Source: an uncultured Pirellulales bacterium
GTDB taxonomy: Bacteria > Planctomycetota > Phycisphaerae > Sedimentisphaerales > Anaerobacaceae
Direction: 5' to 3'
DNA: 39,074 bases
Assembly: GCA_964585535.1 (NCBI GenBank)
Contig: CAZPDW010000001.1
Coordinates: 1-39,074, forward strand
Below are positions 10,117 to 37,301 of the stretch, piece by piece. Each line of letters begins with the position of its first letter. Position 1 is the first letter of the stretch. Under the pieces are notes generated by a model. The model made no database searches and was not told where the DNA came from. It saw nothing but the letters and a program-made list of their open reading frames with translations. The position numbers and the translations under genes are program-made.

Positions 10117-10126
10117 TATAATGGCA

Positions 10127-10242: not shown

Positions 10243-10281
10243 CGTGAAAAAGTTCGAGAAAACGCATTCTGGAAGGTCTCA

Positions 10282-18227: not shown

Positions 18228-18243
18228 ATTAAGCGAAGGGCCT

Positions 18244-18456: not shown

Positions 18457-18507
18457 TTCCCTGGGATTGAGGAAATATTAATAGAGCCAGTAAGAATATG
18501 CAAGAAT

Positions 18508-18777: not shown

Positions 18778-18951
18778 AGCTGTATAAGCCATATGGCTAT
18801 TTGATAAAGCAAATAGCGGTTTCCACACGCAAAATACGAAGCATAAATGTGTCCTGTATTAGTCCAGCGATCTTAGAGGCCCAGGAGTGAGCTGGTCCAG
18901 CGAATTTGGGTTGGTTCATTTTGCCGAGTTGTTAGTAAAAGGATGCGGAAG

Positions 18952-18978
18952 TCGCAGGTTGAAATGACCTGCGATTTT
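18952..18978 (+). terminator. Intrinsic-terminator-like hairpin
   Basis: TCGCAGGT (18952-18959), a 7-nt loop, ACCTGCGA (18967-18974), then TTTT (18975-18978). Confidence 0.35.
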
Positions 18979-18986
18979 GTTCTTAA

Positions 18987-19349
18987 AACGATACGCTCTT
19001 TGAAAAATTCATAAACCGGCTCATGCGTGCGGTAACCGATGCCGATTCGGCCAGCGCAACGAACCCTGTCGATGTCGTTGATTACACTTACAACGACAAC
19101 GGTATCCGTGTCGAGAAGTATACCTTCAAGGTCGCTCAAAATTACCTCGACACCGTCGATGAGCAGACATACGCCACCAATTCCAGGACCGTAGCGTACG
19201 TCATCGACGGGCATGATGGAATTTTGCGTGACCGATTTGGTTTTTTTAGATACTGCTCCCCCTTTGGTGGGGATAAATTAACGCAGATTAACAGTGTTCG
19301 TTCAGATTTTGGATTCCCGCTCCCCTGGGGATACATTTCGCGGGAATGA
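18987..19349 (+). pseudogene. Fragment of a YD/RHS-repeat protein
   Basis: The open frame from 18987 reads ..FINRLMRAVTDADSASATNPVDVVDYTYNDNGIRVEKYTF...RTVAYVIDGHDG.., a typical YD-repeat unit (NRL..VTD....Y.YD.NG.R). It has no N-terminus and no Rhs core or toxin end. Confidence 0.55.
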
Positions 19350-19413
19350 CAAATTATGCTACGTTCTTATCCTAAAAACGGTCAGTTTGAGAAGGTTAAT
19401 TACCTTACGGCAT

Positions 19414-20916: not shown

Positions 20917-21102
20917 AACAGAAGCTCCTTGTAGTTCTAAACGCCAATTTTCCATTCATACCTACCCGGCTACGTTGCCCGGGCCTTATTTTTTCATCTA
21001 TTACTCACCAAATCCGCCTTTATCAGATACGCGCTGAGACGTTTTTGGATTTCCACTGCCCGCTAAGCTTCGCGTCAATGTCAATAGTATCCTGTAACAC
21101 TT

Positions 21103-22461: not shown

Positions 22462-22602
22462 TTTTGCACCTTTCACTGCCATGCCATCTGCGGTGTATAT
22501 ATCGTTCACCAAACATGCTCTTATTGGAATCGCTTTACCGGCCCGGGTGTTTGCACTTCTGCAATTTTGGGAATTTTTCCCGGAAAAACGACCTTGCAAT
22601 CA

Positions 22603-22708: not shown

Positions 22709-23491
22709 GTGGCTCAAAAGAGCGGAAAGATAAGTCAGCCGCGACGGCTCGAGGCAATCAGGCGAAAGCTGCTCGAAGACGATGAGGTCTCGATAGAGGT
22801 CCTTGCCGGCGAGTTCGGTGTCAGCGGTATGACCATACGCAGGGACCTGGACGTGTTAGAGTACCAGGGCGACATAATCCGGACGCACGGCGGGGCGGCG
22901 GCGGCAAAACGGCTTACCTTCGAGTTTTCGTTCCGCGACAGGCAGAACAGGAACATCGAGCAAAAGAGGCGGATAGCCCGGCTGGCGGTAAAATACGTCA
23001 GGCCCGGCGAAGTGATTATGCTCGATACGGGCACGACGACGCTGGCAATCGCCCGGCGGCTCAGCGACAAAGAAAAGATAACGGTAATCACGACCTCACT
23101 GGCGATTGTCTCGGAGCTTCAGTTTGCCGCCGGCGTAGAGACCATTCTTTTAGGCGGTTTTCTGAGAAAGGCATCGCCCGATTTGCACGGGCCTCTTACC
23201 GAGCAGAACGTCGAGCTCTTCCGCACCGATGTTGCTTTCATGGGCGCCGACGCCGTTGACAGTATCGGCAATACCTATACCGACGACCTGCGCGTCGCAA
23301 ACCTTGATAAAAAAATGGCTGCAAATGCAAAAAAGGTAATTGTTGTCGCCGACAGCAGCAAATTCGGCAGGGCCGCAATGTGCAGGGTGTTAGGCCCGGG
23401 CGATTACGATATGCTCATAACCGATTCGGCTGTTGACAAGAAAATCGCCGCAACCCTGGCGAAACGTAAAATCAAGATAGAACCGGCATAA
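22709..23491 (+). CDS. DeoR family transcriptional regulator
   Basis: GTG start with AGGAG 7 nt upstream. wHTH VSIEVLAGEFGVSGMTIRRDLDVLE, and a C-terminal DeoR sensor domain (MLDTGTTTLAIA, VITTSL, AFMGADAV). Confidence 0.9.
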   Translation: MAQKSGKISQPRRLEAIRRKLLEDDEVSIEVLAGEFGVSGMTIRRDLDVLEYQGDIIRTHGGAAAAKRLTFEFSFRDRQNRNIEQKRRIARLAVKYVRPGEVIMLDTGTTTLAIARRLSDKEKITVITTSLAIVSELQFAAGVETILLGGFLRKASPDLHGPLTEQNVELFRTDVAFMGADAVDSIGNTYTDDLRVANLDKKMAANAKKVIVVADSSKFGRAAMCRVLGPGDYDMLITDSAVDKKIAATLAKRKIKIEPA

Positions 23492-23511: not shown

Positions 23512-24321
23512 GTGGAAGAACGCAATTTGTTTTTATCGCGATTTTTCAGCACGGGCCCCGCGATTGTGGTGGCCTTCGACCACGGTATGTTCGACGGGCC
23601 TATCGCAGGTGTTGACAAAATCAGGGAAATTCCGGACAAGATTCTGCCGGAAATAGACGGTGTTTTGATGTCGCCTGGTGCGCTGCGGGACATCGGGCCT
23701 GACCTGTGCGGCCATCGCGGTAGTCCGATGCCGATTGTAAGGATAAACTGGTCGAGCATTTACTGCTTCCAGTGGGACTACCATAGTGGTGACACGGTTC
23801 GTATATACACACCGGCTGAGGCACTCAAATCGGGGGCACAGATGGTTCTTATCTCACTGTCACTGCATACGGGCGACCAGCAGCGTGACAGTAAGAATAT
23901 CGAAGTATTTTCAAGACTGTGCAACGAGGCACATGAGTTAGGGCTTCCGGTGATAGGGGAGTATTTTCCCGTTGACGAAAATATAAGCGAAGACGCCCTG
24001 TACGAGGAGATAAAGATTGGCGCCCGGATACTCTACGAGCTTGGGGCCGATGCGATAAAGACCTTTTATACGAAGGACTTCGAGCAGGTTGTGGCGGGCT
24101 GTCCGACGCCGATACTGGCCCTGGGAGGCCAGCGGCGGGGCAGCGACCTCGACGCTCTCAAACTCGCCCGCCGGCAAATCGATGCCGGGGCGGCGGGTAT
24201 CGTCTTCGGCAGGTATGTGATACAATCTGAAAGGCCCATAGAGCTGCAAAAGGCGCTGCTCGACGTGGTCAAAGGGGGCGTCGGCGGCGAGCAGGCGGCG
24301 GCCAAATACGGGCTGGATTGA
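23512..24321 (+). CDS. Class I aldolase of the DhnA/FbaB/LsrF (DeoC/LacD-like) family
   Basis: GTG start preceded by AGGAG. Motifs IVVAFDHGMFDGP and GADAIKTFYT (candidate Schiff-base Lys), with a TIM-barrel-like periodicity. Confidence 0.7.
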   Translation: MEERNLFLSRFFSTGPAIVVAFDHGMFDGPIAGVDKIREIPDKILPEIDGVLMSPGALRDIGPDLCGHRGSPMPIVRINWSSIYCFQWDYHSGDTVRIYTPAEALKSGAQMVLISLSLHTGDQQRDSKNIEVFSRLCNEAHELGLPVIGEYFPVDENISEDALYEEIKIGARILYELGADAIKTFYTKDFEQVVAGCPTPILALGGQRRGSDLDALKLARRQIDAGAAGIVFGRYVIQSERPIELQKALLDVVKGGVGGEQAAAKYGLD

Positions 24322-24388: not shown

Positions 24389-25672
24389 ATGTCGAGATAT
24401 GTGGAATACTACAGGCGAAAGGAATTTGACATTCCGCAGACGATGCAGGCGGTAATCGCAGCGGGGACGGGTTTTGAGAATTTGAGGGTGGCCGAGGTGC
24501 CGGTGCCGCAAATCGGCCCAGACCAGATTCTTGCGAGGGTCGATGCGGCGGGGGTGTGCACGAGTATTCTCAAGCTGATTGACCAGGGTCCGGAGCACAC
24601 GTATATCAACGGCTGGGATATGAAAAAGTGGCCTTTGATTCTGGGCGACGAGGGCTCGGTGACGCTTGTCAAAATCGGGGAGAATCTCAAAGGCAAATAT
24701 CGGCCTGGCGAGCGTTACGCGATTCAGCCGGCCGTCGGCGTCGGGCCGATTGTGCACCGCGAGCGATACAACAATAACGGCGAGGGTATGTACAAGTGCG
24801 GCGTGGGCTATTCGCTGCCGGGCCATCTCGCCCAGTACATTTGCATCCAGGAGGAGGTTCTGGCCGGCGGCTGTCTGCTGCCGCTTGGCGACGATGATTT
24901 GGCGTATTTTGCCGTGTCGATGGCGGAACCGATAAGCTGTGTCTATTCGGCCCAGCAGAGGAACTACCATTTGTTAAAGGACAGTCCATTTGCCGAACGC
25001 AGGGCGAATATGGGTTTTTTGCCGGGCGGGGTCACTGTTGTCGTCGGAGCAGGGGCAATGGGCAGGATGCACACAGAGCTTGCGCTGCGGTTCAAGCCGG
25101 GCGTGCTGATTGTATCGGATTTGCAGCAGGGCCGGCTCGATAAAACCGCAAAGGCCATCAAAGAAAAGTGCCGCTCGTGCGGGACGCAGCTTGTATGTGT
25201 AACGGCTGATAAGCTTAGGCAGAGTGTCAGCGAGCTGTCGGCCGGCAGGGGCGCAGACGATATTATATTAGCGGTGGGGGTCAATGCCGTTCAGCAGCAG
25301 GCGATCGAGCTGCTGGCGCCCGGCGGTGTGGCTAACCTGTTCGGCGGACTGCCGCGCGGACAGCATATCCTCAAGCTCGACGCGATAGCCGTTCACTACC
25401 GCGAAATCAAGGTTGTGGGTTCAAGCGGCGGCGAACCGAGTGATATGGCTGCAACGCTCGAGGCGATTCATACCGGCGACATCGACCCGGGTAATTATGT
25501 CGCCGCGGTCGGCTCACTCGATAATGCCGTCGACGTATTGAAAATGATAAAGGAAACGCAAATCGACGGCAAGGCGATTCTCTATCCCCACATCAAGCAC
25601 ACGCCACTGAAAACCGTTGACTACTGGGACAAACAGCAGGAGATCGATTTCCTCGACCGGCAGCTTGTTTAG
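24389..25672 (+). CDS. Atypical medium-chain dehydrogenase/reductase (zinc-ADH-like fold, long form of 427 aa)
   Basis: GroES-like N-domain (ILARVDAAGVCTSILK, LILGDEGSVTLVKIG) and Rossmann motif VVVGAGAMGRM. The canonical GHE reads GDE and no four-Cys structural-zinc lobe is seen. Confidence 0.7.
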   Translation: MSRYVEYYRRKEFDIPQTMQAVIAAGTGFENLRVAEVPVPQIGPDQILARVDAAGVCTSILKLIDQGPEHTYINGWDMKKWPLILGDEGSVTLVKIGENLKGKYRPGERYAIQPAVGVGPIVHRERYNNNGEGMYKCGVGYSLPGHLAQYICIQEEVLAGGCLLPLGDDDLAYFAVSMAEPISCVYSAQQRNYHLLKDSPFAERRANMGFLPGGVTVVVGAGAMGRMHTELALRFKPGVLIVSDLQQGRLDKTAKAIKEKCRSCGTQLVCVTADKLRQSVSELSAGRGADDIILAVGVNAVQQQAIELLAPGGVANLFGGLPRGQHILKLDAIAVHYREIKVVGSSGGEPSDMAATLEAIHTGDIDPGNYVAAVGSLDNAVDVLKMIKETQIDGKAILYPHIKHTPLKTVDYWDKQQEIDFLDRQLV

Positions 25673-25683
25673 TGATTTTGAGC

Positions 25684-27375
25684 TTACATATTTATGGTTA
25701 TTTCAGGGCCTCCGGTGTGCCTGATTTTGAGGACGCCGCCTTTGTCGAGCGGCTGCCACGTCCAGCCCTCGGCGTCGAGGTCGGCTCGTTCGGTTATCTT
25801 ATTGCCTGCAACAGTTATACTCTTCGGTTTGGCTGTGATGCGCAGGACTTCTGTCGCGGTGTTGTCGTAGGTTTTGTATGCAATCTCATTCAGTTTGTAG
25901 GAAATTTTTTGTACGACCGATGTCGAGCGCAGCAGGTGATTCTCGTCGGCGGGCGCCCATTCGGGAATTGCGGCGACGGCTGCGGTGAAGTGGCGGATAT
26001 AATCGCTGTAGCCGTCGCTGAACCAGATTTGTCTGCGAATAGGTTTTTGGCCGGTGACATATACCATTCCGTTTTCCTGGGTCATGTAGGTAGCCCAGTT
26101 GAGGTATTTCTCCGCCAGGTCTTTGAATTTACTGTCGCCGGTTCTCTCGTACCACATTGCGCATATCGAGCCGAACCTTGCGGTGTGGCTGCCCATGGGG
26201 ACATAGCACCAGAACTGCTCTTTTATGGCCGGGGCATTTTCGGTTTTGAAGGCGTATTTGACCCAATAGATAAGGTAGGGGATAAATTCGTCGATGTCGT
26301 CTCGCAGGTGGGGATTGTTGATGAGGTATCGTGCGGTTTCCAGCGGGGAGATTTGATTGCGATTGACGTTGCCCTGGTCGTTGGGAATATCCTCGAAGTA
26401 ACCCTTCCAGACCATAGACTTGACAGGGCCGAGATTCGAGAACAGCCAATCCCAGACATGCTTTCGGGTGGTCTTGTAGGTCTTGAGTTTTTCGGGGTCG
26501 AGGTCGATTCTGGCAGAAATTCTTATCAGCTCATCGAAGAGGCTTATCGCTCCGATTACGTTCGAGCAGTATTTTTCATAGACCTTGCCGGTCTCGGCAT
26601 GTACCCGGAAGGGCCAGGGTGAGACGTATGCCTTGTCGAACCATGGGGTCTGCTCGGCCCATTCTTTGTCCTTTTTCACGCCTCGAAAGGCGTTGGCGGC
26701 GAGGGCATCGGCGCAATTGATGGCGGCATCGAGGTATTTTTTTTCATCGACTACCTTATAGAACTGAAGGTATGCGAAAGCAAGCTCGCCGACTTTGTCC
26801 GGCTCGATGACATTGAGGCCGTCGGCTCTTCCACCTATACCCCAGCGTGTTCCGCCGACATATTCGGTTGCTTTGGGGTCGCTGCTGGCGTAGGGGACTT
26901 TGGGCCAGAGCCAGCCCTTGGGTGTGGAGCCGTGTTCGATTTGATGGTCGAGGCACTGGGCGAGCATGCCGATGTAGGAGTCGTCGCCGGAATAGACCCT
27001 GTAATCGAGGACGAGGCCCTGGACGAGGCCTGCGTAGAAGCAGGCGGGGTTGTGCGATTCATCGGAGCCGGCGTCGCCTTTGAGGAACGTTTCTTCGCTG
27101 ATATGCTCGAAGTTGAATATCCAGTTGTGTACCATGTAGTAGGGCAGGCCTGTCGTCGATTCTTTGGGGCAGTTTTTGATGAAGCCGGCGGCGAGGTCGC
27201 AGACTTTTGTGTAGGCGGCGCCGGGGACATCCGGCTTGTACCAGGAAAGCAGCCCAGCCGTGTCGTCGTACACTGCCTTGTGGGTACATAATGTTTCGCG
27301 CGTGGTTTCTGAAAACACCAGGGCGTTAGCAAACAGGAATACAAATATCACATAATACAGGTTCTTTCGCATCAT
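25684..27375 (-). CDS. Secreted protein, paralog A of an unassigned family (putative alpha/alpha-toroid glycan-active enzyme plus C-terminal beta-domain)
   Basis: Signal peptide MMRKNLYYVIFVFLFANALVFS. It shares long identical blocks with 30953-32629: HNPAC.YAGLVQGLVLD.RV..GDDSYI, VPYASSDP, IEPDK.GEL..AYL.FY.V..EKKYL.AAINCADALA, SPWPFRV.A.TG, YFEDIPND, WFSDGY.DYIRHF and STSVVQKI. The fold assignment is inferred from helical repeat patterns only. Confidence 0.75.
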   Translation of the reverse strand: MMRKNLYYVIFVFLFANALVFSETTRETLCTHKAVYDDTAGLLSWYKPDVPGAAYTKVCDLAAGFIKNCPKESTTGLPYYMVHNWIFNFEHISEETFLKGDAGSDESHNPACFYAGLVQGLVLDYRVYSGDDSYIGMLAQCLDHQIEHGSTPKGWLWPKVPYASSDPKATEYVGGTRWGIGGRADGLNVIEPDKVGELAFAYLQFYKVVDEKKYLDAAINCADALAANAFRGVKKDKEWAEQTPWFDKAYVSPWPFRVHAETGKVYEKYCSNVIGAISLFDELIRISARIDLDPEKLKTYKTTRKHVWDWLFSNLGPVKSMVWKGYFEDIPNDQGNVNRNQISPLETARYLINNPHLRDDIDEFIPYLIYWVKYAFKTENAPAIKEQFWCYVPMGSHTARFGSICAMWYERTGDSKFKDLAEKYLNWATYMTQENGMVYVTGQKPIRRQIWFSDGYSDYIRHFTAAVAAIPEWAPADENHLLRSTSVVQKISYKLNEIAYKTYDNTATEVLRITAKPKSITVAGNKITERADLDAEGWTWQPLDKGGVLKIRHTGGPEITINM

Positions 27376-27400
27376 AAGAGTTCCCTATTATCTGTTATTG

Positions 27401-29278
27401 TTAAATGCCCTTGCCTGTTACGGTCCGAACGACTGTTCCGCCTTCAAAAGGTGGAACCTTGATTAAGGCCGAGGTGATATTATCGTCTTGCCTTGTAAAA
27501 AGGTAAAAGCCGGTCGGCACATCCGCGCTGCCGACGAGCTCGGCTTCAACCGTTCCCGAAGACGCCTCGTAAGTGCAGGACTTCATCTTTGAAGTGCGAT
27601 GGGCACGGACAATCCTGAGGGCGTCGTCCATAGTGAGATAAATCGGGTTGTAATCTGCAATGCCTTCGCTGACAAGTTTCAGCTCTCTGTCCCAGTTCTT
27701 CGGCTCTATTCTGAAGAGGTAGTCCGTTTCGTGAGTGAAAAGCACCGCCAACGCCCTGGCATTGAGAGCCCTGGTAAGGATTCTGATGCCGCGGTCAGCC
27801 GTTCCATCGTCATCGTTGTCGGGCTTCCATTCGTAGCCGGTTATATCAGCAATCACAGTTGAGCAGTTAAAGAACTTGCGCCCCGCCAGCTCCACAAAGT
27901 CGGCGTTATATCTCGGATGCGAGACCCTGACTTTTTTGGGCTTTCCATAAACCGGTTCTTCATACAGGCGGAATGGGCCTGACTTGATTCCGGGTCCCGG
28001 CTGACCCCAGGCCCAGTCGAGGGGAGCTGCAGCGATGAACTCAATACGCCACTTATCTGCGATGTGCGGTATGCAATTGCTGCCCATTTCGCCCCAGTGC
28101 GCAATGAGATACTTCGACATCGGCAGCGGCTGATTGTCGGCGCACCATTTGTCAATGGCCTTCAGATTTTCCGATGCGACCTCATCGGGCCAGGACTCTT
28201 TGTCGTTATGATTGTAGAAGATGAACTCGTCGTAGAACTTCGAGCGGTACGGCAGCGCTTTGGGATAGTAGTAGTCGGGTATGAAATGGTTCGGGACCAT
28301 TTGATACTTGTAGTCGGCCTCGAAGTTGGCGGCGTCGGATTCCGGTCTGGGCGGTCTTCCGAAGGCGTGGGGCGACCAGGCTGCCTGTCCGTCCAGGATA
28401 TATCCCCGCAGCTCTTCGACCGCCTGAGGATTCAGGTTGTAAATGAACAGGGCGAGCCACGGCTTGAAACCATATTTGTTGGCGGTTTTAATCCAGAAAA
28501 ACGGAGTCTGGTTCCAGCGTCCGCCCGAGCCGACAACATCATCGATACGCATAGTCACTATCGGCGGCAGAAGCCGCATTGCGAATGGTTTTCTTGCCGC
28601 CCAGACGATTGACCGCCACAGCAAATCATCCAGCCCACCCATAGGCCCAAGCACCGAGCGGTACATCCAGTCCTGGCTGGTGAACTGCGCTACCCTGCCT
28701 TTTCCCGCTGAGGCAGCAACGAGCAGCGGGTAATTGCTGCCGCTCACCAGGACATCGGCATTGACAGCGGAAAATCGAGCAAGCTGCATTACGCCAAATA
28801 GTTCGAGTATCTCAACCGGTTTGTGAAGGGCGGTTATAAAATGGCCTGCCGGCGAGAACTTTAACTCGCCGACATCCACAGGGCGGGACTGTCGGCCCGA
28901 CTGATTCTTCAAAAAGGCGCCCGGAACATCGGGGTCAAAACTGACCAGGCCGGTACCTGCCTTTACACCTGCCGTCAACAGCTCATCGAGTTTGTCCTTC
29001 AGCCGGCTGTCACCGGCGGCTAAGCGGCTGTGGGAGACTATTACCAGGGCATAATAAACGACGGATGCGGGAAGATTTTGCCGGCCCAAATCCACCACGC
29101 TATATGGCACGCCAAAATGGTCGAGATAGGGCAAGAGCTTTTCCTTTGCCTTTGAAACTTGCGGGCTGTTAGTATTCAATAAGACGAGCACATCCATCGA
29201 GCCGGCCTTTGCAGAGGCGTTTGCAGCACCAATTAGTATCATTGATACTAACAGCAGTATAAAAGTTATTTTTTTCAC
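27401..29278 (-). CDS. Secreted 625-aa protein of unknown function (possible flavodoxin/GATase1-like N-domain plus polysaccharide-deacetylase-like middle domain)
   Basis: GTG start preceded by GGAGAAGGA. Signal peptide MKKITFILLLVSMILIGAANASA. The N-terminal VLVLLNTN...LPYLDHFGVPYSVVDL...YALVIVSH resembles sugar-enzyme accessory domains. IVTMRIDDVVG resembles the xRxDD start of NodB/DUF2334-like deacetylase folds. This is a weak call made by eye. Confidence 0.6.
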   Translation of the reverse strand: MKKITFILLLVSMILIGAANASAKAGSMDVLVLLNTNSPQVSKAKEKLLPYLDHFGVPYSVVDLGRQNLPASVVYYALVIVSHSRLAAGDSRLKDKLDELLTAGVKAGTGLVSFDPDVPGAFLKNQSGRQSRPVDVGELKFSPAGHFITALHKPVEILELFGVMQLARFSAVNADVLVSGSNYPLLVAASAGKGRVAQFTSQDWMYRSVLGPMGGLDDLLWRSIVWAARKPFAMRLLPPIVTMRIDDVVGSGGRWNQTPFFWIKTANKYGFKPWLALFIYNLNPQAVEELRGYILDGQAAWSPHAFGRPPRPESDAANFEADYKYQMVPNHFIPDYYYPKALPYRSKFYDEFIFYNHNDKESWPDEVASENLKAIDKWCADNQPLPMSKYLIAHWGEMGSNCIPHIADKWRIEFIAAAPLDWAWGQPGPGIKSGPFRLYEEPVYGKPKKVRVSHPRYNADFVELAGRKFFNCSTVIADITGYEWKPDNDDDGTADRGIRILTRALNARALAVLFTHETDYLFRIEPKNWDRELKLVSEGIADYNPIYLTMDDALRIVRAHRTSKMKSCTYEASSGTVEAELVGSADVPTGFYLFTRQDDNITSALIKVPPFEGGTVVRTVTGKGI

Positions 29279-29304
29279 TTTCCTTCTCCCGTAACCGGCT
29301 TTTT

Positions 29305-30930
29305 TTATAATCGAACAACAATCTCGTTACCGTGTGTATGCCTGATGCGCAGGATGCCGCCTTTTTTCAAGGGCTTCCAGGTCCAGCCCTCGGTATCCGG
29401 CGATTTGCTTTCGTCAATTTCTTTGCCCTTTAGTATTACGTTTTTGGGCTTCGAGGTGATGCGGAGGACCTCGGTGGAGGCATCATCAAAAGTCCTGTAT
29501 CGGATTTCGCTGGGGGAGTATTCGATTGTTTTTATAACGGAGGTAGTGTGGACAAGATGGTTGGCATTGTCCGGGGCGAGTTTTTCGGGCATTACCGCCA
29601 TTGCATTGAGGTAGTGCTCGACGTAGTCGCCGTAGCCGTCGGTGAACCAGATTTCATCGTCGTATGGGTCGCCGGGATACTCATTTCTGCCCTCGTAATC
29701 GACGCTGTATGTGGCCCAGTTGAGCTGGCGAACTGCGTTGGCGACGCGGGAGTCGTCACCGGTGAGTTTGGCATAGAGCAATTCGATTGAGGCGTAGCGT
29801 GAGGTGTGGCTGTTGCCTTCGTATTGATATACGGATTGTTCGTTGATGACGGTGACGCCGTATTTGTCCCAGCGGTGGTTGCCAAGCTCGTTGAACATCC
29901 AGTCGAGGCAGCGGCGGGCGTCTTTCTGCCAGGTGTCGCCCCACTGCTCTTTGTGATTAAGGATATACCAGGCGAGCCGGCCTGCGTTGATACCGGTATT
30001 GGACCAGATGGAGATATCCTCGAAGAACGGGCCGAACTTATTTTTGGAGATGGGAACCTTTTTCAGCCAATCGATGAACAGCCGTTCGGCCATTTTGTAT
30101 TGTTCGGTATTGCCGACGCACATTTTTATCAGCTCGTCGAACATCATTGCCGTCCAGGTCCAGTTGCTCGTATAAGGCCAGAGGACCCTGCCGGTTTGGG
30201 TGTTGACCTTGTAAGGCAGGGGGGATTTTTCGATGTCACCGGCGGCGGTATTTTTGGCGAGGGTGTCGGCGATTTTCACGGCGGCGTCGAGGTATCTTTT
30301 ATTGTCGGTGATTTTGTACAGGTTTATGAGCTGGTATCCGAGGTCGCCGGCCTTGTCCAATTGGGTGACATTGAGTCCGTCGCGGAGGTCACCGTCATAG
30401 CGAAAGCCGGGTTCCCGGCTCGAGTTCCAGGGGTAGGGCAGATTAGGCCATTTGCAATCCGGGCCGCTCAGCCCGTGGTAAAGATAAAAGTCGGCCATAT
30501 AAATCATATTTTCCGGCACCTTGCGGTCGCCGGTATAGGCGTAGTATTTTGCCCAGGAGCTTAGAAGCATCTGAATCTGGTCGCCGCCGATGCCGTCGTC
30601 ATGGTGATGATGTTTGAAGACGGGGTTGTCGAGGGTGTATGGGAGGATTCGGTGGAGCATATAGTATTTGACGCCGTCGTGGACGTAGCCGATGGTGTCC
30701 CATTTGTGCCAGATGAGCTGGAGAACGAGGTCGTAGGATTGGCCGAGGTTGTCGCCGGGCCAGGGGACGATATTGTTGTTTGGGTCGGTTTGAATATAGT
30801 GATGGCCGAGCCGTTCGGGATGGCCGAGCAGGCCGTTAGGGCGCTTTCTCGGCTCAACACGCTCGGCGGCGGAAACGGTTGAAAGCAAGAACAATGCGGC
30901 AGTCAGAGCACATGCAGTATATCTTTTCAT
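29305..30930 (-). CDS. Secreted protein, divergent paralog B of the same unassigned family
   Basis: The start is set at ATG 30930 (GGAG 6 nt upstream). Signal peptide MKRYTACALTAALFLLSTVSAA. It shares with A and C: DKAGDLGYQLINLYKITDNKRYLDAAVKIADTLA, SPLPYKVNTQTG, FFEDI, WFTDGYGDYVEHY, HTTSVIKTIEY and the C-terminal TEVLRITSKPK...EGWTWKPLKKGGILRIRH. Confidence 0.75.
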   Translation of the reverse strand: MKRYTACALTAALFLLSTVSAAERVEPRKRPNGLLGHPERLGHHYIQTDPNNNIVPWPGDNLGQSYDLVLQLIWHKWDTIGYVHDGVKYYMLHRILPYTLDNPVFKHHHHDDGIGGDQIQMLLSSWAKYYAYTGDRKVPENMIYMADFYLYHGLSGPDCKWPNLPYPWNSSREPGFRYDGDLRDGLNVTQLDKAGDLGYQLINLYKITDNKRYLDAAVKIADTLAKNTAAGDIEKSPLPYKVNTQTGRVLWPYTSNWTWTAMMFDELIKMCVGNTEQYKMAERLFIDWLKKVPISKNKFGPFFEDISIWSNTGINAGRLAWYILNHKEQWGDTWQKDARRCLDWMFNELGNHRWDKYGVTVINEQSVYQYEGNSHTSRYASIELLYAKLTGDDSRVANAVRQLNWATYSVDYEGRNEYPGDPYDDEIWFTDGYGDYVEHYLNAMAVMPEKLAPDNANHLVHTTSVIKTIEYSPSEIRYRTFDDASTEVLRITSKPKNVILKGKEIDESKSPDTEGWTWKPLKKGGILRIRHTHGNEIVVRL

Positions 30931-30952
30931 GACCGGCTCCATTTATGAATTG

Positions 30953-32629
30953 TCACATGGTAATGACAATTTCAGCAGCATTATCGTGTCTGATTCTGAG
31001 GACGCCGCCTTTGTCGAGCGGCTGGAAGGTGAAGCCCTCGGCGTTGAGGTTTTTGCGCTCGGTTATCTGCTTGCCGTTCACTTTGACGCTCTTTGGTTTG
31101 GCGGTTATCCGCAGCACTTCAGTTGATTCATCATCGTAGGTCTTGTACTCGATTCGAGCAGGTGAGTATTTGATTTTCTGAACGACTGATGTTGATTTGA
31201 GAAGGTGGTCTTTGCCGGCGGGCGCCCATTCGGGGACGGCGGCCAGGCCTTCGGCGAAGTGACGAATGTAATCACCGTAGCCGTCGGAGAACCACGAGCC
31301 GAGCCACGAAGGGCCTACTGCCACTACGCCGCTGTCGTAGGTCATATAGGAGGCGAAATTGAAGAAGCGATATGCCTGCTGTTTGAACCATTCGTCGTGA
31401 GTTCTTTCGTACCACAGTGCGCAGATTGAGGCGTAACGGGCGGTATGGCTACCCATCGGGGCGTAGCACCAGGTCTGCTCGTTGATTGCGTCGGCGCCTT
31501 TTTCGCCGAAGACACACTTTACCCAGTAAATCAGGGCCGGCACATCGGTTTCCAAATCGGGGTCAAGCCCGGGGTGTTTGATGAGGTAACGGGCGGTCTC
31601 CATCGGGGTAATCTGGATTCTGTTGGATGTCTCGGGGTCGTTCGGGATATCCTCGAAGTATGCGTTCCAGATGAAGGTTTTCATCGGGCCGTTTTTGCTG
31701 TAAAGCCATTTCCAGGCCAGGTCTCGGGCCTTTTTATACGCGCCGGCTTTTTCTTCGCTAAGGTTTATTCGCTTTTTGATGCGGCCCAGCTCATCGAACA
31801 GTGCGATGGGTTCAATGACGTTCGAGCAGTATTGAGAGATGACTACGCCTGTTCTGGCGTTGACGCGAAAAGGCCAGGGTGATTTCTCGGTATTGGCGGG
31901 AGAAAAAATCGAGGGCTCGCCGGTAACGTCGCGGACGTTTTTTGCGAGAGCATCGGCGCAGTTGATTGCGGCCTTGAGGTACTTTTTCTCTTCGGTAACT
32001 TCGTAGAACTTCAGATAGGCAATACCCAGCTCGCCGAGTTTGTCCGGCTCGATGCCGTGCAGGCCGTCGCCTCGCATCGCCTCGTGCTCCCACTTAGTGG
32101 CGCCAACATAGACGACTTCGCCGGGGTCGGAGCTGGCGTAAGGGACGTTGGGCCATTTCCAGTCGGGTTCAGTGCTGCCGAAGTCGATTTGGTGGTCGAG
32201 CATTTCGCGCACAACATCGATATACGAATCATCTCCGGTAAAAACACGCCAATCCAGAACCAGCCCCTGGACCAGGCCGGCATAGACGCAGGCAGGGTTG
32301 TGCATCCAGCCCCCTGCTGTCTTGCCGGCATCGAAGGCCTCCTGACTCTTGATATGCGGGCCATCAAAACAGCAGTAAAGCAGATACAATTTCTTGCCGG
32401 TCTTCGGGTCCGCGGGCGTACCCGACTTGATAAACTCCGAAGCCAGTTTGCAGACGTGGACATATCCTGCACCGGGGGTATCGGGCTTGTACCAGGACAG
32501 AATCTTTCCATCGGCGTCACGCCGGACTTTGTGTGAGCACATTACGCCTTTTTGCTGAGCGGTGACCTGGGCCGATATTTCTGTCGTAAGGATTGCGAGC
32601 AGCATTAGAGCTATGATTGCCGGCTTCAT
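30953..32629 (-). CDS. Secreted protein, paralog C of the same unassigned family
   Basis: The start is set at ATG 32629 (GGAGG 7 nt upstream). Signal peptide MKPAIIALMLLAILTTEISAQ. It aligns full-length by eye to paralog A. Confidence 0.75.
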   Translation of the reverse strand: MKPAIIALMLLAILTTEISAQVTAQQKGVMCSHKVRRDADGKILSWYKPDTPGAGYVHVCKLASEFIKSGTPADPKTGKKLYLLYCCFDGPHIKSQEAFDAGKTAGGWMHNPACVYAGLVQGLVLDWRVFTGDDSYIDVVREMLDHQIDFGSTEPDWKWPNVPYASSDPGEVVYVGATKWEHEAMRGDGLHGIEPDKLGELGIAYLKFYEVTEEKKYLKAAINCADALAKNVRDVTGEPSIFSPANTEKSPWPFRVNARTGVVISQYCSNVIEPIALFDELGRIKKRINLSEEKAGAYKKARDLAWKWLYSKNGPMKTFIWNAYFEDIPNDPETSNRIQITPMETARYLIKHPGLDPDLETDVPALIYWVKCVFGEKGADAINEQTWCYAPMGSHTARYASICALWYERTHDEWFKQQAYRFFNFASYMTYDSGVVAVGPSWLGSWFSDGYGDYIRHFAEGLAAVPEWAPAGKDHLLKSTSVVQKIKYSPARIEYKTYDDESTEVLRITAKPKSVKVNGKQITERKNLNAEGFTFQPLDKGGVLRIRHDNAAEIVITM

Positions 32630-32697
32630 CTTAGTGCCTCCATAAAGTATTGTCACTGTCCCGTTGTGAGTGTTTTTACACGTCGGGGCCTGAAAAA

Positions 32698-32745
32698 AAT
32701 GTTATTAAAAAACACACTTGAACATAATCTAACATCCTTTATAAT
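32698..32745 (+). promoter_or_regulatory. 48-bp promoter/operator module, copy 2 (reads toward the isomerase-kinase-transporter operon)
   Basis: AATGTTATTAAAAAACACACTTGAACATAATCTAACATCCTTTATAAT, with TTGAAC at 32718-32723, a 16-nt spacer and TATAAT at 32740-32745. It is 43/48 identical to the reverse complement of 22603-22650. Confidence 0.65.
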
Positions 32746-32809
32746 GCCCTGCAACTATGTTTTCCACAAAAAAACCGGAATCGAAAAGAACCGTTAAGGG
32801 AGACGCACA

Positions 32810-34171
32810 ATGGCTGACCGAAAGAAAATCGTCGCGGGAATTGTCGGACTCGGATACGAGGGATATTCGATGGATTTCGTTGATAAGATAACGGCCCGCG
32901 TCCGCAGGGACCTGCAGAAGAGCGACGCCTTTACATTCAGGCGGATACCGAAGATTCAAAACTACGAGCAGGGCCAGGCCGCAATCGAGGCATTTTCGCC
33001 GAAGGGCTGTGATTTGCTCATCGCCGTAGTGGCGAGCTGGCTGGACGGGCGGGGCGCGATGCCCTTCTTGATAGCCAACAAGCAGTTGCCCGTTTTGCTT
33101 TACGCGACGGGCGGCAGGACACAAAAGCCCGGCTACCTGCTGTCGCCAGCGGCCGGCGCCGGCGCGCCGGGGATACTCGAACCGATGAGGGCGGCGGGAA
33201 TCGAATTCAAGTTTTTGCACGAGCCGCCGGATACCAATACAAAGGTCGATGAGATACTGCGGTTTGCCAGGGCGGCAAAGGCGGTCAACAACCTTAAGAG
33301 CAAACGGCTCGGCAGTATGGGCTTTGGCGATATGGGGCTGTACACGACAAACTTCGACAACACGCTTATCAGGAACGTATATGGCGTCCAGACCGAGTTC
33401 TTCGATATGCTCGAGGTGGAAAATGCCGCGGCAGCGGTTGGTAAAGCACAGGCAAACAAAGTCATATCGCAATTGAAAAAAGACTGGAAGTTTTTAGGGC
33501 AGTCCCCGAAAGACGAGACGCTCGAGAGGGTCGCCTCGCTGACGTTAGCCGTCCGCAAAATCATAAGGGAAAAGAAGCTCTCGGCCATATCGCTGAAGTG
33601 TGTCGAGGGTATGATGTCGCATATGGCCTGTGCGCCTTGTATGATAGGCACGCTCGTGGGCGACGACTGCTTTTACGTCTGCGAGAACGATGTGCCGGGT
33701 ATGTTGGGTCACGTTATTTTGAATTCGGTCAGCGGCGAGGTTGCAACGTTTGTTGAGTCGTATGAGCTCTGGGACGACCGGATTCTGTTCGGCGTGTGCG
33801 GTTTTGTGCCGCCTTCAATGATAAAGGGGCCCAAACTGAGCAAGCTGTTCAAGACCGAGCCGTGGGAAGGGCTGATGAACTGCTCGCAGATGAAGACGGG
33901 CAGGGTAACAATGCTCAGGCCTTACTTTACCGGCGGTGCGGCCAGGATTCATCTGGTGACGGCCAAGGCGGTGCCGGCGAGAAAGTGGCTCGAGATAGGA
34001 TTTGAAGAGCCGGGAATGCACCCGAGCGTTGAGATTGTACTCGACGGAACGTTGAGGCATTTCGTTGAGCACGTGCCCGCACAGCACTTTTCGTTGGTCT
34101 ATGGCGACTGGGCGAAAGAAGTTGAGTACCTTTGCAGACTGCTCGGCGTCGAATTAGTTTACGAAGGGTAA
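32810..34171 (+). CDS. Aldose-ketose isomerase of the L-arabinose/L-fucose isomerase superfamily
   Basis: AAGGGAG RBS. The architecture parallels AraA/FucI. N-terminal flavodoxin-like IVGLGYEGYS...LLIAVVASW. Central CENDVPG and FVESYELWD match the positions of AraA GEGDWK and FMEDY. C-terminal AQHFSLVYGDW...LGVEL matches AraA HHTVFSH...HDIEI. Confidence 0.6.
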   Translation: MADRKKIVAGIVGLGYEGYSMDFVDKITARVRRDLQKSDAFTFRRIPKIQNYEQGQAAIEAFSPKGCDLLIAVVASWLDGRGAMPFLIANKQLPVLLYATGGRTQKPGYLLSPAAGAGAPGILEPMRAAGIEFKFLHEPPDTNTKVDEILRFARAAKAVNNLKSKRLGSMGFGDMGLYTTNFDNTLIRNVYGVQTEFFDMLEVENAAAAVGKAQANKVISQLKKDWKFLGQSPKDETLERVASLTLAVRKIIREKKLSAISLKCVEGMMSHMACAPCMIGTLVGDDCFYVCENDVPGMLGHVILNSVSGEVATFVESYELWDDRILFGVCGFVPPSMIKGPKLSKLFKTEPWEGLMNCSQMKTGRVTMLRPYFTGGAARIHLVTAKAVPARKWLEIGFEEPGMHPSVEIVLDGTLRHFVEHVPAQHFSLVYGDWAKEVEYLCRLLGVELVYEG

Positions 34172-34195: not shown

Positions 34196-35698
34196 TTGGA
34201 CTTTTTTCTATCGCTGGACATCGGGACTACATCGGTAAAAGCTGCGCTTGTCGGCGCGGACGGCGAGATACCGGCCATTGCAGTGAGGGAATACACGCTT
34301 TATACACCGGCTGAGAATATCGTTGAGTTAGAGCCGGAAATTTACTGGCGCCGCTGCGTCGAAGGCATCAAAGAGGTGCTTGATAAAAGCGGGGTCGCCG
34401 CGGGGCAAATCAAATCGGTCGGCGTATGCAGCCAGGGCGAAACGCTCATCTGCCTCGACGAGAATGGCGGGGCATTGCGAAAAGCGATTGTCTGGATGGA
34501 CAACCGCTCGACGAAAGAGGCCGGGGAAATAAAAGCCGCCCTGACAACAGAGAACAATACCGGCCAATTGGATGTCGCCGCCACCTGGCCCGTTACAAAA
34601 ATCCTCTGGCTGAAGAAAAACGAGCCCGAAACTTATCGCAGGGTACACAAATTTGTGCTTGTCGAGGATTATATTCTGTACCGCCTGACGGGGCTGTTCA
34701 AGGGAGAGTATTCGCTTTATACGTCGTCGTTTATGTTAGACATCATCAACAAAAGGTGGTGGACCGAGATACTCGATTATGTCGGTGTGGCGGCCGAGCG
34801 GCTTGTTGAGCTTTGCGAGTCGGGCGAGGTAATCGGCGAGGTTCAGCCGGCTGTCTGCAAAGAGACGGGGCTGGCCGAGGGTATGAAGGTTGTTACAGGG
34901 GCGATGGACCAGACGGCGGCGATGATTGGAGCGGGCAACATCAAAAGCGGCATTGTTACCGAGACCACCGGGGCGGCCTTAGCCGTATGCGGTACAACCG
35001 GCGCGTTTGCGGCCAAAGAGGCGAAACGAACTATGGCGGTCCAATACCACGCCATTGTCGACAAATACCTTATCATCGGCTGGTGTCCAACGGGCGGGAT
35101 GGCGTTTAAGTGGCTGCGTGACACCTTGTTCGGCGCAGAAAAAGGCCGGGCGGCAAAAGACGGAGCCGATGTCTACGACGCAATGACCGCACTGGCGGCT
35201 GAAATCCCGCCGGGCAGCCGGGGGCTGATTTTCCTGCCGTACCTGGCAGGTCCCGGGACGGGCAATATCAGCGCCGATGCAAGGGGGGTATTCTACGGGC
35301 TTGAGCTGCACCACAATCGCGGCGATTTTGCCAGGGCGGTAATGGAATCGGTTGCCTTTGTGCTGAAACAATACGTTGTCGAGATGGGCCGGCTGGGCCT
35401 TGAGTGCAGTGAAATCCGTTCGTTAGGGGGCGGCTCGAAGAGCCGGCTGTGGAACCGGATAAAGGCGGACGTCTTGGGAAAACCTGTAACGACGATGAGG
35501 TGTGGCGAGGCCGCTGCGCTCGGTGTCGCCATTTTGCAGGCCGCGGCAATGGGGACGTTCGATACCATCGAGCAGGCCGTTAAAAGTATGGTGCGGACCG
35601 AATCGGTCGTTGAGCCGGTTGAAGAAAATGTCAGGGTGTACGGCGGGATTTTCGAGAAGTTTTGCGAAATAAACAATAAATGTTTCGGTGTGGTGTGA
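34196..35698 (+). CDS. FGGY family carbohydrate kinase (xylulokinase/fuculokinase-like)
   Basis: TTG start. Motifs FLSLDIGTTSVKAALV, VGVCSQGETL, AIVWMDNRS and GGGSKSRLWNRIKADVLGKPV. Confidence 0.88.
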   Translation: MDFFLSLDIGTTSVKAALVGADGEIPAIAVREYTLYTPAENIVELEPEIYWRRCVEGIKEVLDKSGVAAGQIKSVGVCSQGETLICLDENGGALRKAIVWMDNRSTKEAGEIKAALTTENNTGQLDVAATWPVTKILWLKKNEPETYRRVHKFVLVEDYILYRLTGLFKGEYSLYTSSFMLDIINKRWWTEILDYVGVAAERLVELCESGEVIGEVQPAVCKETGLAEGMKVVTGAMDQTAAMIGAGNIKSGIVTETTGAALAVCGTTGAFAAKEAKRTMAVQYHAIVDKYLIIGWCPTGGMAFKWLRDTLFGAEKGRAAKDGADVYDAMTALAAEIPPGSRGLIFLPYLAGPGTGNISADARGVFYGLELHHNRGDFARAVMESVAFVLKQYVVEMGRLGLECSEIRSLGGGSKSRLWNRIKADVLGKPVTTMRCGEAAALGVAILQAAAMGTFDTIEQAVKSMVRTESVVEPVEENVRVYGGIFEKFCEINNKCFGVV

Positions 35699-35708
35699 GG
35701 ACTGGTAT

Positions 35709-37301
35709 ATGGAAGGAATCGGAACACTCGATATCTTTGTATTTATCAGCTACTTTGTCGTAGTTGTATTTATCGGTTTTTTCGTAGGCAGGAAGAAGAA
35801 GGAATCGGCCCGCGATTACTTTGTAACATCGAGCCGGCTGCCGTGGTACATCATCGGCTTTGCGATGGTGGCCTCTTCGATAAGCACCGAGCAGTTTATC
35901 GGCTCGGCGGGCTTTACGTACAAGTGGGGTATTGCGGTATTCAACTGGGAATGGTGCAACTGGCCTGCGATGCTCATATTAATCTGGATATTTCTGCCTG
36001 TATATCTAAACAAGAAGATAGTTACGATGCCCGGCTACCTCGAGAAGAGGTTCGGGGCCGGGCCCCGCAACGTTTATGCGGCCATCAGCATACTCGCGGC
36101 GGTGCTCATAATCCTTCCCGGGGTACTTTACACCGGCGGGCTGCTTTTGAACCAGATATTTCCCGCAATTTCGATAGGTAAGGGAATCTGGCTGATGGCG
36201 ATAGTTAGCGGGGCGTTTACGATTTACGGCGGGATGATTTCGGTGGCGTGGGCGCAGTTGTTCCAGGCGATTCTGCTGTTAGCGTCGGGGATTCTTTTGT
36301 TCTTTTTAGCCATAGTAAAGGTGCCGGGCGGGCTAAACGCCATTCTGTGGGCGCCGGATGAGGCGAGAAACCACCTCATACTGCCATACAATCACCCGGA
36401 GCTTCCCTGGACGGCCATTATAGTTTTAGTCGTTTCGACAAATATATGGTACTTCTGCACAAACCAGACCATAATCCAGAGCTGTCTCGGTGCGAGGTCG
36501 CGCCGGGACGGCATAATGGGGATAATACTGCTGGGTTTTCTGATGATTTTGACCGGTCTTTCGGTGGAGTTTCCCGGCTTAGTGGCTTATGCGCTCAATC
36601 CTCACCTGGAAAAGGCCGACACCGCCTATCCGTTTGTGGTCAAGCAGCTTGTCAGTACGGGGCTGAAAGGACTGGTGCTGGCCGGTATGTGCGGAGCGGT
36701 TATGAGCACGGTCGAGGCGCTGATGCATTCCTCGTCGGCCATTTTCACGATGGATTTGTACACGAGATTGTTCAGGAAAACGCCCGACAAAAAGCTCATC
36801 ACCATAGGCCGATGGGCCAGCGGCAGCATACTTTTAGTGGGAGCGCTGTGGGCGCCGATGGTCGCAAAATTCCCCGACATATTCAGTTTTTTCCAGCGCT
36901 GCTGGTTTTTCATCGCCGCTCCGGTGGCGGCGGTTTTTATCCTTGCGATACTGTCCAAACGCACCACACGAACCGCCGCTCTCTGGGGTCTGCTGCTGGT
37001 CTTTCCGCTGTTCGTATTGCCGTACATCCTGCTGGCCGGCAAGAAGCATTTCGGCTGGCAGGTGAACGATTTTAATTTAGCCGGCGTTATCTTTGCGTTC
37101 TCTATGGTCTTCATCGCTGTCCTCAGCGCATTCACTAAGCCGGCTAAAGCCGAGCAGATTGAGGGGCTCGTCTGGCGCCCGGCAATGATGAAACTGCCCG
37201 AGGCCGAGCTGGCCGACGGCTATCCGTGGTACAAGAACCTCTGGCTGTGGTGCGGAATCTGGGTGGCCGTAATGGTCGCGATATATGTCAGGTTCTGGTA
37301 G
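35709..37301 (+). CDS. Sodium:solute symporter family (SSS/SGLT-like) transporter
   Basis: The start is set at ATG 35709 (GAGGA 7 nt upstream). About 13-14 TM helices, with SSS-type motifs RDYFVTSSRLPWYIIGFAMVASSISTEQFIG and TMPGYLEKRFG. Confidence 0.85.
   Translation: MEGIGTLDIFVFISYFVVVVFIGFFVGRKKKESARDYFVTSSRLPWYIIGFAMVASSISTEQFIGSAGFTYKWGIAVFNWEWCNWPAMLILIWIFLPVYLNKKIVTMPGYLEKRFGAGPRNVYAAISILAAVLIILPGVLYTGGLLLNQIFPAISIGKGIWLMAIVSGAFTIYGGMISVAWAQLFQAILLLASGILLFFLAIVKVPGGLNAILWAPDEARNHLILPYNHPELPWTAIIVLVVSTNIWYFCTNQTIIQSCLGARSRRDGIMGIILLGFLMILTGLSVEFPGLVAYALNPHLEKADTAYPFVVKQLVSTGLKGLVLAGMCGAVMSTVEALMHSSSAIFTMDLYTRLFRKTPDKKLITIGRWASGSILLVGALWAPMVAKFPDIFSFFQRCWFFIAAPVAAVFILAILSKRTTRTAALWGLLLVFPLFVLPYILLAGKKHFGWQVNDFNLAGVIFAFSMVFIAVLSAFTKPAKAEQIEGLVWRPAMMKLPEAELADGYPWYKNLWLWCGIWVAVMVAIYVRFW

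Follow-up and report, generated by a model that had tools for sequence, protein, structure and literature searches.

A multi-paralog operon encoding predicted exported six-hairpin proteins of an unnamed family in an uncultured Pirellulales bacterium

The A-B-X-C operon

We analyzed a stretch of 39,074 nucleotides (nt) from an uncultured Pirellulales bacterium (GenBank assembly GCA_964585535.1, contig CAZPDW010000001.1, positions 1 to 39,074 of the forward strand; hereafter the window), and focused on four consecutive minus-strand genes that we designated A, B, X and C in the order of their transcription. Gene A (30953..32629; 558 amino acids, aa), gene B (29305..30930; 541 aa) and gene C (25684..27375; 563 aa) each encode a predicted exported member of an unnamed family with a modeled six-hairpin fold; A is an A-type member, B is a B-type member that retains all family-invariant residues, and C is a planctomycete-specific A-type duplicate. 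Gene X (27401..29278; 625 aa) sits inside the paralog series, between B and C, and encodes a putative glycan de-N-acetylase, predicted to be exported and to adopt a three-domain fold like that of Agd3 and PelA (CE18-like). Judged from the sequences retrieved, the family is large, resides in polysaccharide utilization loci (PULs), and is unnamed in the resources searched (Pfam, NCBIfam, the PDB and source names).

The four genes are tightly spaced, with 22 nt between A and B, 26 nt between B and X, and 25 nt between X and C. Gene A starts at an ATG at 32629 that is preceded 9 nt upstream by GGAGG, with an alternative GTG at 32656 in the list of open reading frames (ORFs), and Shine-Dalgarno (SD)-like purine runs lie ahead of all four starts. 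Read by eye, all four N-termini carry positive charge followed by a hydrophobic stretch, as expected of a Sec-type leader. A preliminary description of this DNA had placed the paralogs on one strand with gaps of 22-26 nt, SD-like sites and signal peptides; each of these features was confirmed, with the addition that X interrupts the paralogs. Since the number of terminator-like sites in the region did not exceed shuffle expectation and none fell within the A-B-X-C gaps, a single operon is the simplest reading of the sequence. The stop codon of C lies only 11 nt from that of a convergent Zn-dehydrogenase gene (25672-25684), which leaves scant room for separate terminators.

By BLASTP, A and C were 54% identical over their full length (E = 0), and A and B were 33% identical and collinear (E = 4e-78). 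This similarity is far past chance and, as the preliminary description had proposed for a set in which B is divergent yet collinear, marks A, B and C as real paralogs at the sequence level. Isoelectric points of the four products ranged from 6.0 to 7.3 and were uninformative with respect to charged substrates.

Fold and conserved residues of the six-hairpin family and of X

The AlphaFold2 model of A, computed on a 40-sequence alignment, reached a mean predicted local distance difference test (pLDDT) score of 90.2 and a predicted template modeling (pTM) score of 0.90. Twelve long helices spanning residues 54-464 form an (alpha/alpha)6 barrel, which is followed by an all-beta C-terminal domain (475-557), a beta-sandwich of ~85 aa. 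Foldseek comparison of this model with the PDB (entries to April 2026) returned 137 matches at E<=1e-3. Nearly all of the best 50 were six-hairpin proteins, among them AGE epimerases and glycoside hydrolases (GHs) of families GH76, GH127/GH146, GH8/GH9-like, GH78 and GH116, at ~10% identity and template modeling (TM) scores of 0.45-0.65, or 0.55-0.65 when normalized by target. The top full-barrel matches were cellobiose 2-epimerase, glucose 2-epimerase and YihS (E ~1e-6, TM by target 0.60-0.65). On the strength of the model, A belongs to the six-hairpin (alpha/alpha)6 fold superfamily and has no solved close relative in this copy of the PDB, because such a relative would score far higher. The lowest E-value was returned by an archaeal virus SSV19 tail protein (7xdi_F; TM 0.38-0.45, root-mean-square deviation 12.6), probably reflecting a generic helical-toroid resemblance. 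The preliminary description had read the helix pairs as an (alpha/alpha)6 six-hairpin array, a C-terminal block of ~90 aa as a beta-sandwich, and the proteins as members of no known family; the modeled barrel and its neighbors, the modeled all-beta domain, the generic character of the Foldseek matches, and the database negatives described below support these calls.

None of A, B, C and X scored above the cut-off of any Pfam or NCBIfam model. When the 40 alignment members were scanned singly against Pfam, matches were sub-threshold only, to the GH127 catalytic domain in 17 of 40, to C5-epim_C in 8 of 40 and to GH76 (PF03663) in 7 of 40. The best score against the GH127/GH146 model (DUF1680, PF07944) was 14.9 bits against a gathering cut-off of 24.9, and covered a 30-residue hairpin only. 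GH127/GH146 enzymes such as HypBA1 employ a cysteine nucleophile with a Cys3-Glu zinc site, and GH76 enzymes employ two consecutive catalytic aspartates. No cysteine was invariant or >=90% conserved in the diverse family alignment, and the GH76 profile matches from the PDB covered only a repeated 25-35-residue hairpin motif in which the aligned position is D196-K197; both the GH127 Cys/Zn site and the GH76 'DD' pair are absent at the aligned positions. AGE families gave no Pfam match, and the PDB sequence match to cellobiose 2-epimerase (E 0.06) was limited to one hairpin. More generally, PDB sequence searches with a single protein and with two profiles recovered only this helix-hairpin motif (G-x-L-x-x-L-Y-x-x-T-x-x-x-x-Y-L-x-x-A) and no chain beyond it. 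The motif is common to GH76, LanC, GH127-like proteins and cellobiose epimerase, and recurs within GH76 itself. There was no GH144 or GH162 structure among the best 50 of the 137 Foldseek matches, any source name shown for the 240 listed relatives of A and B was 'hypothetical protein' (most were nameless), and a literature search found no description of the six-hairpin family or its gene module.

The family resembles the six-hairpin GHs (GH76, GH127/GH146, GH8, GH9, GH78, GH116) in its 12-helix barrel with long loops and conserved polar residues on one face, its helix-hairpin motif, its accessory beta-sandwich, its predicted export and its PUL placement. It differs in that no family model reaches threshold for A, B or C, and in its ~10% identity to solved structures. 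The AGE superfamily (cellobiose 2-epimerase, glucose 2-epimerase, YihS) gives the best overall barrel superposition by Foldseek. In contrast to the A family, which is predicted to be exported and is ~550 aa in length, AGE enzymes are cytoplasmic proteins of ~390-420 aa that lack the beta-sandwich.

Residue conservation was assessed across 42 deliberately diverse sequences, 27-56% identical to A, and is given in A numbering. Invariant positions were P251, D327, E384, Y428, P466 and H475, so that D327 and E384 are the sole invariant acids of the barrel; D196, E326, Q385, H395, T396, R398, W446, D449, Y451 and D453 were among those conserved in >=90% of sequences, and H457 was conserved in the 40-homolog alignment. 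The motifs listed in the preliminary description (HNPAC, VPYASSDP, SPWPFRVNA, YFEDIPND, WFSDGYGDY) are real, being conserved in the 40 homologs. In the model of A, helix connections are either short (131-135, 212-215, 410-413) or long (70-112, 150-195, 230-272, 309-340, 374-393, 429-447), and the conserved motifs, together with EPDK and NEQ...GSHTAR, map to the long connections or to the starts of helices 2, 4, 6, 8, 10 and 12. They would therefore lie on one face of the barrel, probably the face where six-hairpin enzymes hold their catalytic centre. Two invariant carboxylates would favor acid/base hydrolysis. Since B keeps every one of the conserved putative active-site residues, A, B and C all look active; outside the retained catalytic motifs, B differs in its loops, such as the HNPAC and IPNDPETSNR segments.

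The model of X (pLDDT 88.8) begins with a GATase1/ThuA-like domain, continues with an alpha/beta barrel and ends in a beta-sandwich. Its top Foldseek match was Agd3 (6nwz; E 3e-11, full-length over 752 alignment columns), followed by PelA, an enzyme that modifies Pel (9cgy; E 1.8e-9). Agd3 is the founding CE18 galactosaminogalactan de-N-acetylase, and contains a GATase1-like CBM87 domain, a (beta/alpha)7 barrel and a beta-rich C-terminal domain in that order; its CM1 is Asp-Asp, with an unusually long spacing to the metal-binding histidines of CM2 (HxxxH) (PMC7229062). The three-domain order is shared by X, Agd3 and PelA. Residues D246-D247, H304, H394, E397 and H516 of X are invariant, and of these D246-D247 matches CM1, with the next conserved histidine that could correspond to CM2 (H394) following ~148 residues on. 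In contrast to Agd3, HxxxH is replaced in X by an invariant H394-x-x-E397, a residue correspondence judged from sequence and not from structural alignment. X further differs from Agd3 and PelA in its setting, which is catabolic rather than an exopolysaccharide biosynthesis operon, and in its sequence: a 39-homolog profile found no PDB chain at E<=10, and neither Pfam nor NCBIfam gave a match. By its modeled fold, X is plausibly a metal-dependent glycan de-N-acetylase of a new sequence family.

Distribution and genomic context of the family

With a profile as query, a set of 1.84 billion representative sequences yielded 1582 clusters at 50% identity with E<=1e-3, and 408 with E<=1e-30. Genome matches fell in Planctomycetota, KSB1, Calditrichota, Ignavibacteriota, Verrucomicrobiota, Lentisphaerota, Gemmatimonadota, Latescibacterota, Glassbacteria and Aminicenantes, and among Bacteroidota in Chitinophagaceae, Cytophagales, Prolixibacteraceae and Tannerella; the bacteria that carry the family come from soil, sediment, digesters and termite gut. 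Carriers in culture include Chryseolinea sp. H1M3-3, Maribellus sp. CM-23 and Mariniphaga sediminis SY21. The nearest planctomycete matches were from Pirellulales (91%) and Phycisphaerales (82%), which makes a Pirellulales-like planctomycete the probable source of the window. Gene order was retained in a Pirellulales metagenome-assembled genome (MAG; L004, CAYMYK010000034.1), where A is 91% identical, and in a metagenome contig (L083, Ga0315538_1001437), where X is 99% identical. Members were also recorded in MAGs labelled 'archaeon' and 'Methanosarcinaceae archaeon' (L029, protein P0429), probably as a result of binning errors, because the distribution is otherwise bacterial. Many relatives are 700-1900 aa long and carry added Ig-like, fn3, DUF4082 or Laminin_G_3 modules, or sorting tails of the type IX secretion system (T9SS), a pattern that is typical, as far as domain composition tells, of surface or secreted enzymes. 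Within the 25 families most often fused, possible second catalytic domains were limited to single-protein hits to Peptidase_S9 and RGI_lyase, and the fusions, consisting only of Ig-like, fn3, DUF4082 and lectin-like modules, offer no clue as to substrate.

Comparison with A, B and C served to assign 110 family proteins of the retrieved loci to subfamilies. A-type and B-type members occurred together in 16 multi-copy loci outside the window (15 distinct), in both Bacteroidota and Planctomycetota, while C-type copies were confined to the Pirellulales-like loci L001, L004, L006 and L007, which hold 3-5 copies each. By this assignment, the A-type and B-type form an ancient pair, and C is a lineage-specific duplicate of A. 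The preliminary description had suggested triplication with sub-functionalization. A recent triplication is ruled out by the ancient subfamilies; the division of labor is supported, given an ancient A/B pair to which a lineage-specific duplicate of A has been added.

The paralogs lie among genes of sugar catabolism. On the minus strand, 19414..20955 encodes a glycoside 3-dehydrogenase-like Gfo/Idh/MocA oxidoreductase that is predicted to be exported by twin-arginine translocation (TAT) (Pfam GFO_IDH_MocA, C2 and TAT_signal; NCBIfam BT_2158 family 388.8 bits, below the cut-off of 750), and 21103..22599 encodes a class-III pyridoxal phosphate-dependent aminotransferase (or racemase; Pfam Aminotran_3). 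Orthologs of the latter, 61-63% identical, lie within the same operons as the family in Planctomycetota, Bacteroidota and Ignavibacteriota. On the plus strand follow an AgaR-like regulator of the DeoR family (22709..23491; Pfam, with NCBIfam AgaR at 199.6 bits, below cut-off) and a DhnA/LsrF-type class-I aldolase (23512..24321; Pfam DeoC, with LsrF and MJ0400 as PDB matches), both conserved as part of the module described below, and an IolM-like Zn-dependent alcohol dehydrogenase (24389..25672; Pfam ADH_N/ADH_zinc_N, NCBIfam IolM 8.5e-24, below cut-off) that is confined to the closest relatives, L004 and L005. Beyond gene A, an AT-rich region of 180 nt (32630..32809) separates the A-B-X-C operon from a divergent isomerase-kinase-transporter operon. 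It contains one promoter-like site per strand, not above shuffle expectation, and from its position is likely a shared regulatory region. A riboswitch or other RNA element is ruled out there, as Rfam gave only one tRNA elsewhere in the window.

The divergent operon begins with a FucI/SftI-like aldose-ketose isomerase (32810..34171, plus; Pfam Fucose_iso_N1, weak) that matched the NCBIfam model for SftI sulfoquinovose isomerase at 1.3e-21, below cut-off, and D-arabinose/L-fucose isomerase in the PDB over its N-terminal part only. It continues with an FGGY-family sugar kinase (34196..35698, plus; Pfam FGGY_N/C, xylulokinase-like at 330 bits, below cut-off) and a sodium:solute symporter (SSS; 35688..37301, plus; Pfam SSF), whose place is taken in Bacteroidota loci by a FucP-like transporter of the major facilitator superfamily (MFS). 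The end of the kinase gene and the beginning of the symporter gene share 11 nt (35688-35698), which suggests translational coupling. At the edge of the locus lies a GH2 glycosidase resembling beta-glucuronidase and beta-galactosidase (37323..39026, minus; Pfam GH2 N, middle and TIM domains; NCBIfam beta-glucuronidase 242.6 bits, below cut-off).

Linkage was examined in two sets of loci: a family-centred set of 82 tabulated genome loci (79 distinct; the tabulation includes two duplicates), in which the module genes were sought by tblastn, and an X-centred set of 48 metagenome loci of >=6 kb. The aminotransferase was found in 17 of the 82 family-centred loci, the isomerase in 16, the FGGY kinase in 15, the DeoR regulator in 14 and the aldolase in 13. 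Neighbor clusters in the 79 distinct loci were headed by Gfo/Idh/MocA (15), SusC (12), SusD (11), short-chain dehydrogenases/reductases (SDR; 11) and FucP-like MFS transporters (11), and also included esterases (10), GH28 (9), GH97 (6), GH92 (6), DMFA2_C (6) and GH78 (4). Contexts with precomputed Pfam assignments likewise placed GH28, GH97, GH116, GH78, sulfatases and AP_endonuc_2 next to the family. Family genes are interleaved in module operons, as in L044 (DeoR, class-III aminotransferase, family gene, Gfo, isomerase, MFS) and L036 (DeoR, class-III aminotransferase, Gfo, isomerase, MFS, family gene, X, family gene). In the 48 X-centred loci, the isomerase was present in 20, the kinase in 19, Gfo in 16, the aldolase in 13, DeoR in 13, the aminotransferase in 11 and the six-hairpin family in 6. 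The association with the 625-aa X to which the preliminary description had pointed therefore recurs in part: X is found in 5 of the 79 family-centred loci and the family in 6 of the 48 X-centred loci, counts that rule out an obligate pair. Because X-centred loci carry the same module independently, with the family in only those 6, the cytoplasmic module appears from gene order to be a hub to which X and the six-hairpin family attach separately as two exported arms.

A second family context comprises a different class-III aminotransferase (24-27% identical to that of the window, an unrelated type), an SDR, an EamA transporter, an L-arabinonate-dehydratase-like IlvD/EDD enzyme and a GntR/FCD regulator (L015, L028, L034, L011 and L165), and suggests an oxidative, non-phosphorylative route.

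Three further groups of proteins recur at these loci. DMFA2_C proteins (~500 aa, with a GATase1-like C-terminal domain) directly follow family genes in 6 loci (for example L020:11723-13252, L058:140-1624 and L063), and may be partners analogous to X because the N-terminal domain of X is also GATase1-like. The c61 family (~440-490 aa; L133:3216-4541, L122:13050-14396, L023:13293-14777) occurs in 11 of the 48 X-centred loci and also adjoins six-hairpin genes. Pfam and NCBIfam gave no match for c61, which carries the motif 'QTIDGFGVNIN' and may be another unnamed glycosidase. Finally, c20, a predicted lipoprotein of ~240 aa with no match in Pfam or NCBIfam, lies directly 3' of X or of six-hairpin genes in at least 12 loci (L036:15448-16179, L059:17000-17734, L113:11851-12573).

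Elsewhere in the window, 4332-11217 holds an unrelated tetrapyrrole biosynthesis cluster (CobA/HemD fusion, HemL, a radical-SAM/SPASM protein, HemA and HemC). GC content falls to 0.47-0.49 at 17000-20000, compared to ~0.54-0.58 elsewhere, and especially at 18228-19413. This 1.2-kb segment contains short ORFs only, of which 19023-19349 (+) holds a YD/RHS-like YTYNDNGIRVEKY segment, and is possibly a gene remnant or foreign insert.

A candidate role in the degradation of amino-sugar-containing glycans

On balance, we lean toward the view that the A/B/C family is a candidate new GH family that cuts a probably amino-sugar-containing glycan. According to this proposal, A, B and C would act on the glycan as periplasmic or extracellular hydrolases, with D327 and E384 in catalysis, aided by D196, E326, D449, D453, H395 and R398, all grouped on the side of the barrel that bears the long loops. 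A-type and B-type proteins would have complementary specificities (for example different linkages, or endo versus exo action), with C serving as an extra A-type copy, and X would strip N-acetyl groups from the glycan that they cut. The released sugar would be imported by the SSS or FucP-like MFS transporter. The class-III aminotransferase and the Gfo/Idh/MocA oxidoreductase might then convert the amino group to a hydroxyl via a keto intermediate, after which the FucI-like isomerase would yield a ketose, the FGGY kinase would phosphorylate it and the class-I aldolase would split the product, the whole locus being controlled by the DeoR repressor.

We suspect an amino sugar because two unrelated class-III aminotransferases flank the family in two different catabolic contexts, because the fold of X is that of a de-N-acetylase and its DD motif is invariant, and because the aminotransferase is better conserved than three other components of the module (61-63% identity among orthologs, compared to 32% for the isomerase, 40% for the kinase and 46% for the aldolase) and the Gfo resembles C3-specific dehydrogenases. 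Specifically, the cytoplasmic Gfo is closest to levoglucosan dehydrogenase and UDP-GlcNAc 3-dehydrogenase. Together with aminotransferases, such dehydrogenases convert the hydroxyl, keto and amino groups of sugars into one another. GH4 alpha-galactosidase and galactokinase genes are also found in X-centred loci. The module follows the same succession of functions (transporter, aldose-ketose isomerase, kinase, aldolase) as the L-fucose (FucP-FucI-FucK-FucA) and sulfoquinovose Embden-Meyerhof-Parnas (EMP)-type pathways, the parallels being the FucI/SftI-like isomerase, the FucP-like MFS transporter and a kinase that, like FucK, is of the FGGY family. It differs from these pathways in that all of its components score under equivalog cut-offs, in that its aldolase is of the class-I DhnA/LsrF type where FucA of the fucose pathway is class II, and in the addition of the class-III aminotransferase and the Gfo/Idh/MocA oxidoreductase. 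A fitness study in B. thetaiotaomicron described no transaminase-based route for amino sugars (PMC8121099).

Several findings weigh against hydrolysis of an amino-sugar glycan. The glycan-cleaving activity of A, B and C is one that we infer from modeled fold and gene context, and the nearest folds to A found by Foldseek, at ~10% identity and TM 0.45-0.65, are epimerases and isomerases, not hydrolases. The grouping of the conserved residues into one pocket rests on secondary-structure position, not distances. The closest solved relatives of the aminotransferase are aminotransferases of the gamma-aminobutyric acid (GABA) type and amino-acid racemases, not sugar enzymes. Within 10 kb, the majority of family loci are without the module, and X stands beside the family in just the few loci counted above. 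Lastly, Gfo/Idh/MocA, AP_endonuc_2 and ThuA genes abound in these phyla, and part of the co-occurrence may therefore be background.

The conserved residues and the fold bear on two alternative activities. A, B and C might be polysaccharide lyases (PLs) that cleave a uronic-acid glycan by beta-elimination, with a Tyr/His base and an Arg/Asn neutralizer. A toroid followed by a C-terminal beta domain is also the build of PL families that join an (alpha/alpha)n toroid to a beta-sandwich, Y428 does not vary and H395, R398 and Y451 hardly do, GH28 genes neighbor the family in 9 loci, the window itself holds a beta-glucuronidase-like GH2, and the second context supplies SDR and IlvD/EDD dehydratase genes. 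We nevertheless consider a lyase unlikely, in that none was among the best 50 of the 137 Foldseek matches, the beta domain of A is just ~85 aa, the module has an FGGY kinase and a class-I aldolase instead of KduI/KduD/KdgK/KdgA-type genes, and both invariant barrel residues named as catalytic candidates are carboxylates, which are better suited to acid/base hydrolysis. Alternatively, the full-barrel matches that Foldseek ranked highest (cellobiose 2-epimerase, glucose 2-epimerase and YihS), the sub-threshold C5-epim_C matches in 8 of 40 members and the conservation of H395, R398 and H457 would fit AGE-superfamily-like periplasmic epimerases or isomerases that act on oligosaccharides, or at the polymer level in the manner of glucuronyl C5-epimerase. 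To this we assign a low probability: AGE matches were found neither in Pfam nor among PDB sequences, signal peptides and multidomain forms of the surface or T9SS type set the family apart from AGE enzymes, which are cytoplasmic, a PUL position beside SusC/D fits a depolymerase, and several paralogs per locus fit multiple linkages better than a single epimerization.

Gene context raises two more alternatives. The TAT-signal glycoside-3-dehydrogenase-like gene in the window, the presence of GFO_IDH_MocA_C2, AP_endonuc_2, 3keto-disac_hyd and ThuA beside the family in contigs of KSB1, Latescibacterota and others, and a Gfo cluster in 15 of the 79 loci would be accounted for if A, B and C acted in an oxidative 3-keto-glycoside route, where they would hydrolyze, hydrate or eliminate 3-keto-glycosides produced by the TAT-exported Gfo. 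Such a role seems to us quite improbable, given that the abundance of these partner families in the phyla concerned makes adjacency a weak argument, that the Gfo of the module is mostly of the cytoplasmic type, and that, to our knowledge, enzymes of the known 3-keto-glycoside route are not six-hairpin proteins. The adjacency of SusC/D in some loci and the fusions to Ig-like and lectin-like domains would be compatible with a non-catalytic part in the uptake machinery, as glycan-binding or scaffold proteins. That reading we hold to be very improbable, as D196, E326, D327, E384, H395, R398, D449 and D453 persist in very divergent members in an active-site-like pattern, and the six-hairpin barrel is an enzyme fold in nearly all of the listed structural neighbors.

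Returning to amino-sugar glycan hydrolysis, a wider version of it is possible, one that we offer tentatively and regard as doubtful in full. The six-hairpin family, X, c61 and c20 would make up the extracellular arm of an undescribed, cross-phylum system for degrading amino-sugar-rich polymers, the cytoplasmic arm of which transaminates and keto-reduces the released sugar. Example polymers would be a Pel-, galactosaminogalactan- or chitosan-like exopolysaccharide, or a glycan built of 3- or 4-amino-deoxyhexoses. If true, three things would be new at once: the GH family, an esterase family and an amino-sugar catabolic pathway that differs from the classical deaminase route. Assigning an activity to the six-hairpin family would annotate thousands of genes, and the family, once characterized, would probably found a new CAZy family. 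Its conserved A-type/B-type pair offers a clean system in which to study the division of labor between paralogous enzymes. Turnover of amino-sugar-bearing polymers is poorly understood, and the combination of the family with an aminotransferase operon and an Agd3-fold X could show how environmental bacteria consume them.

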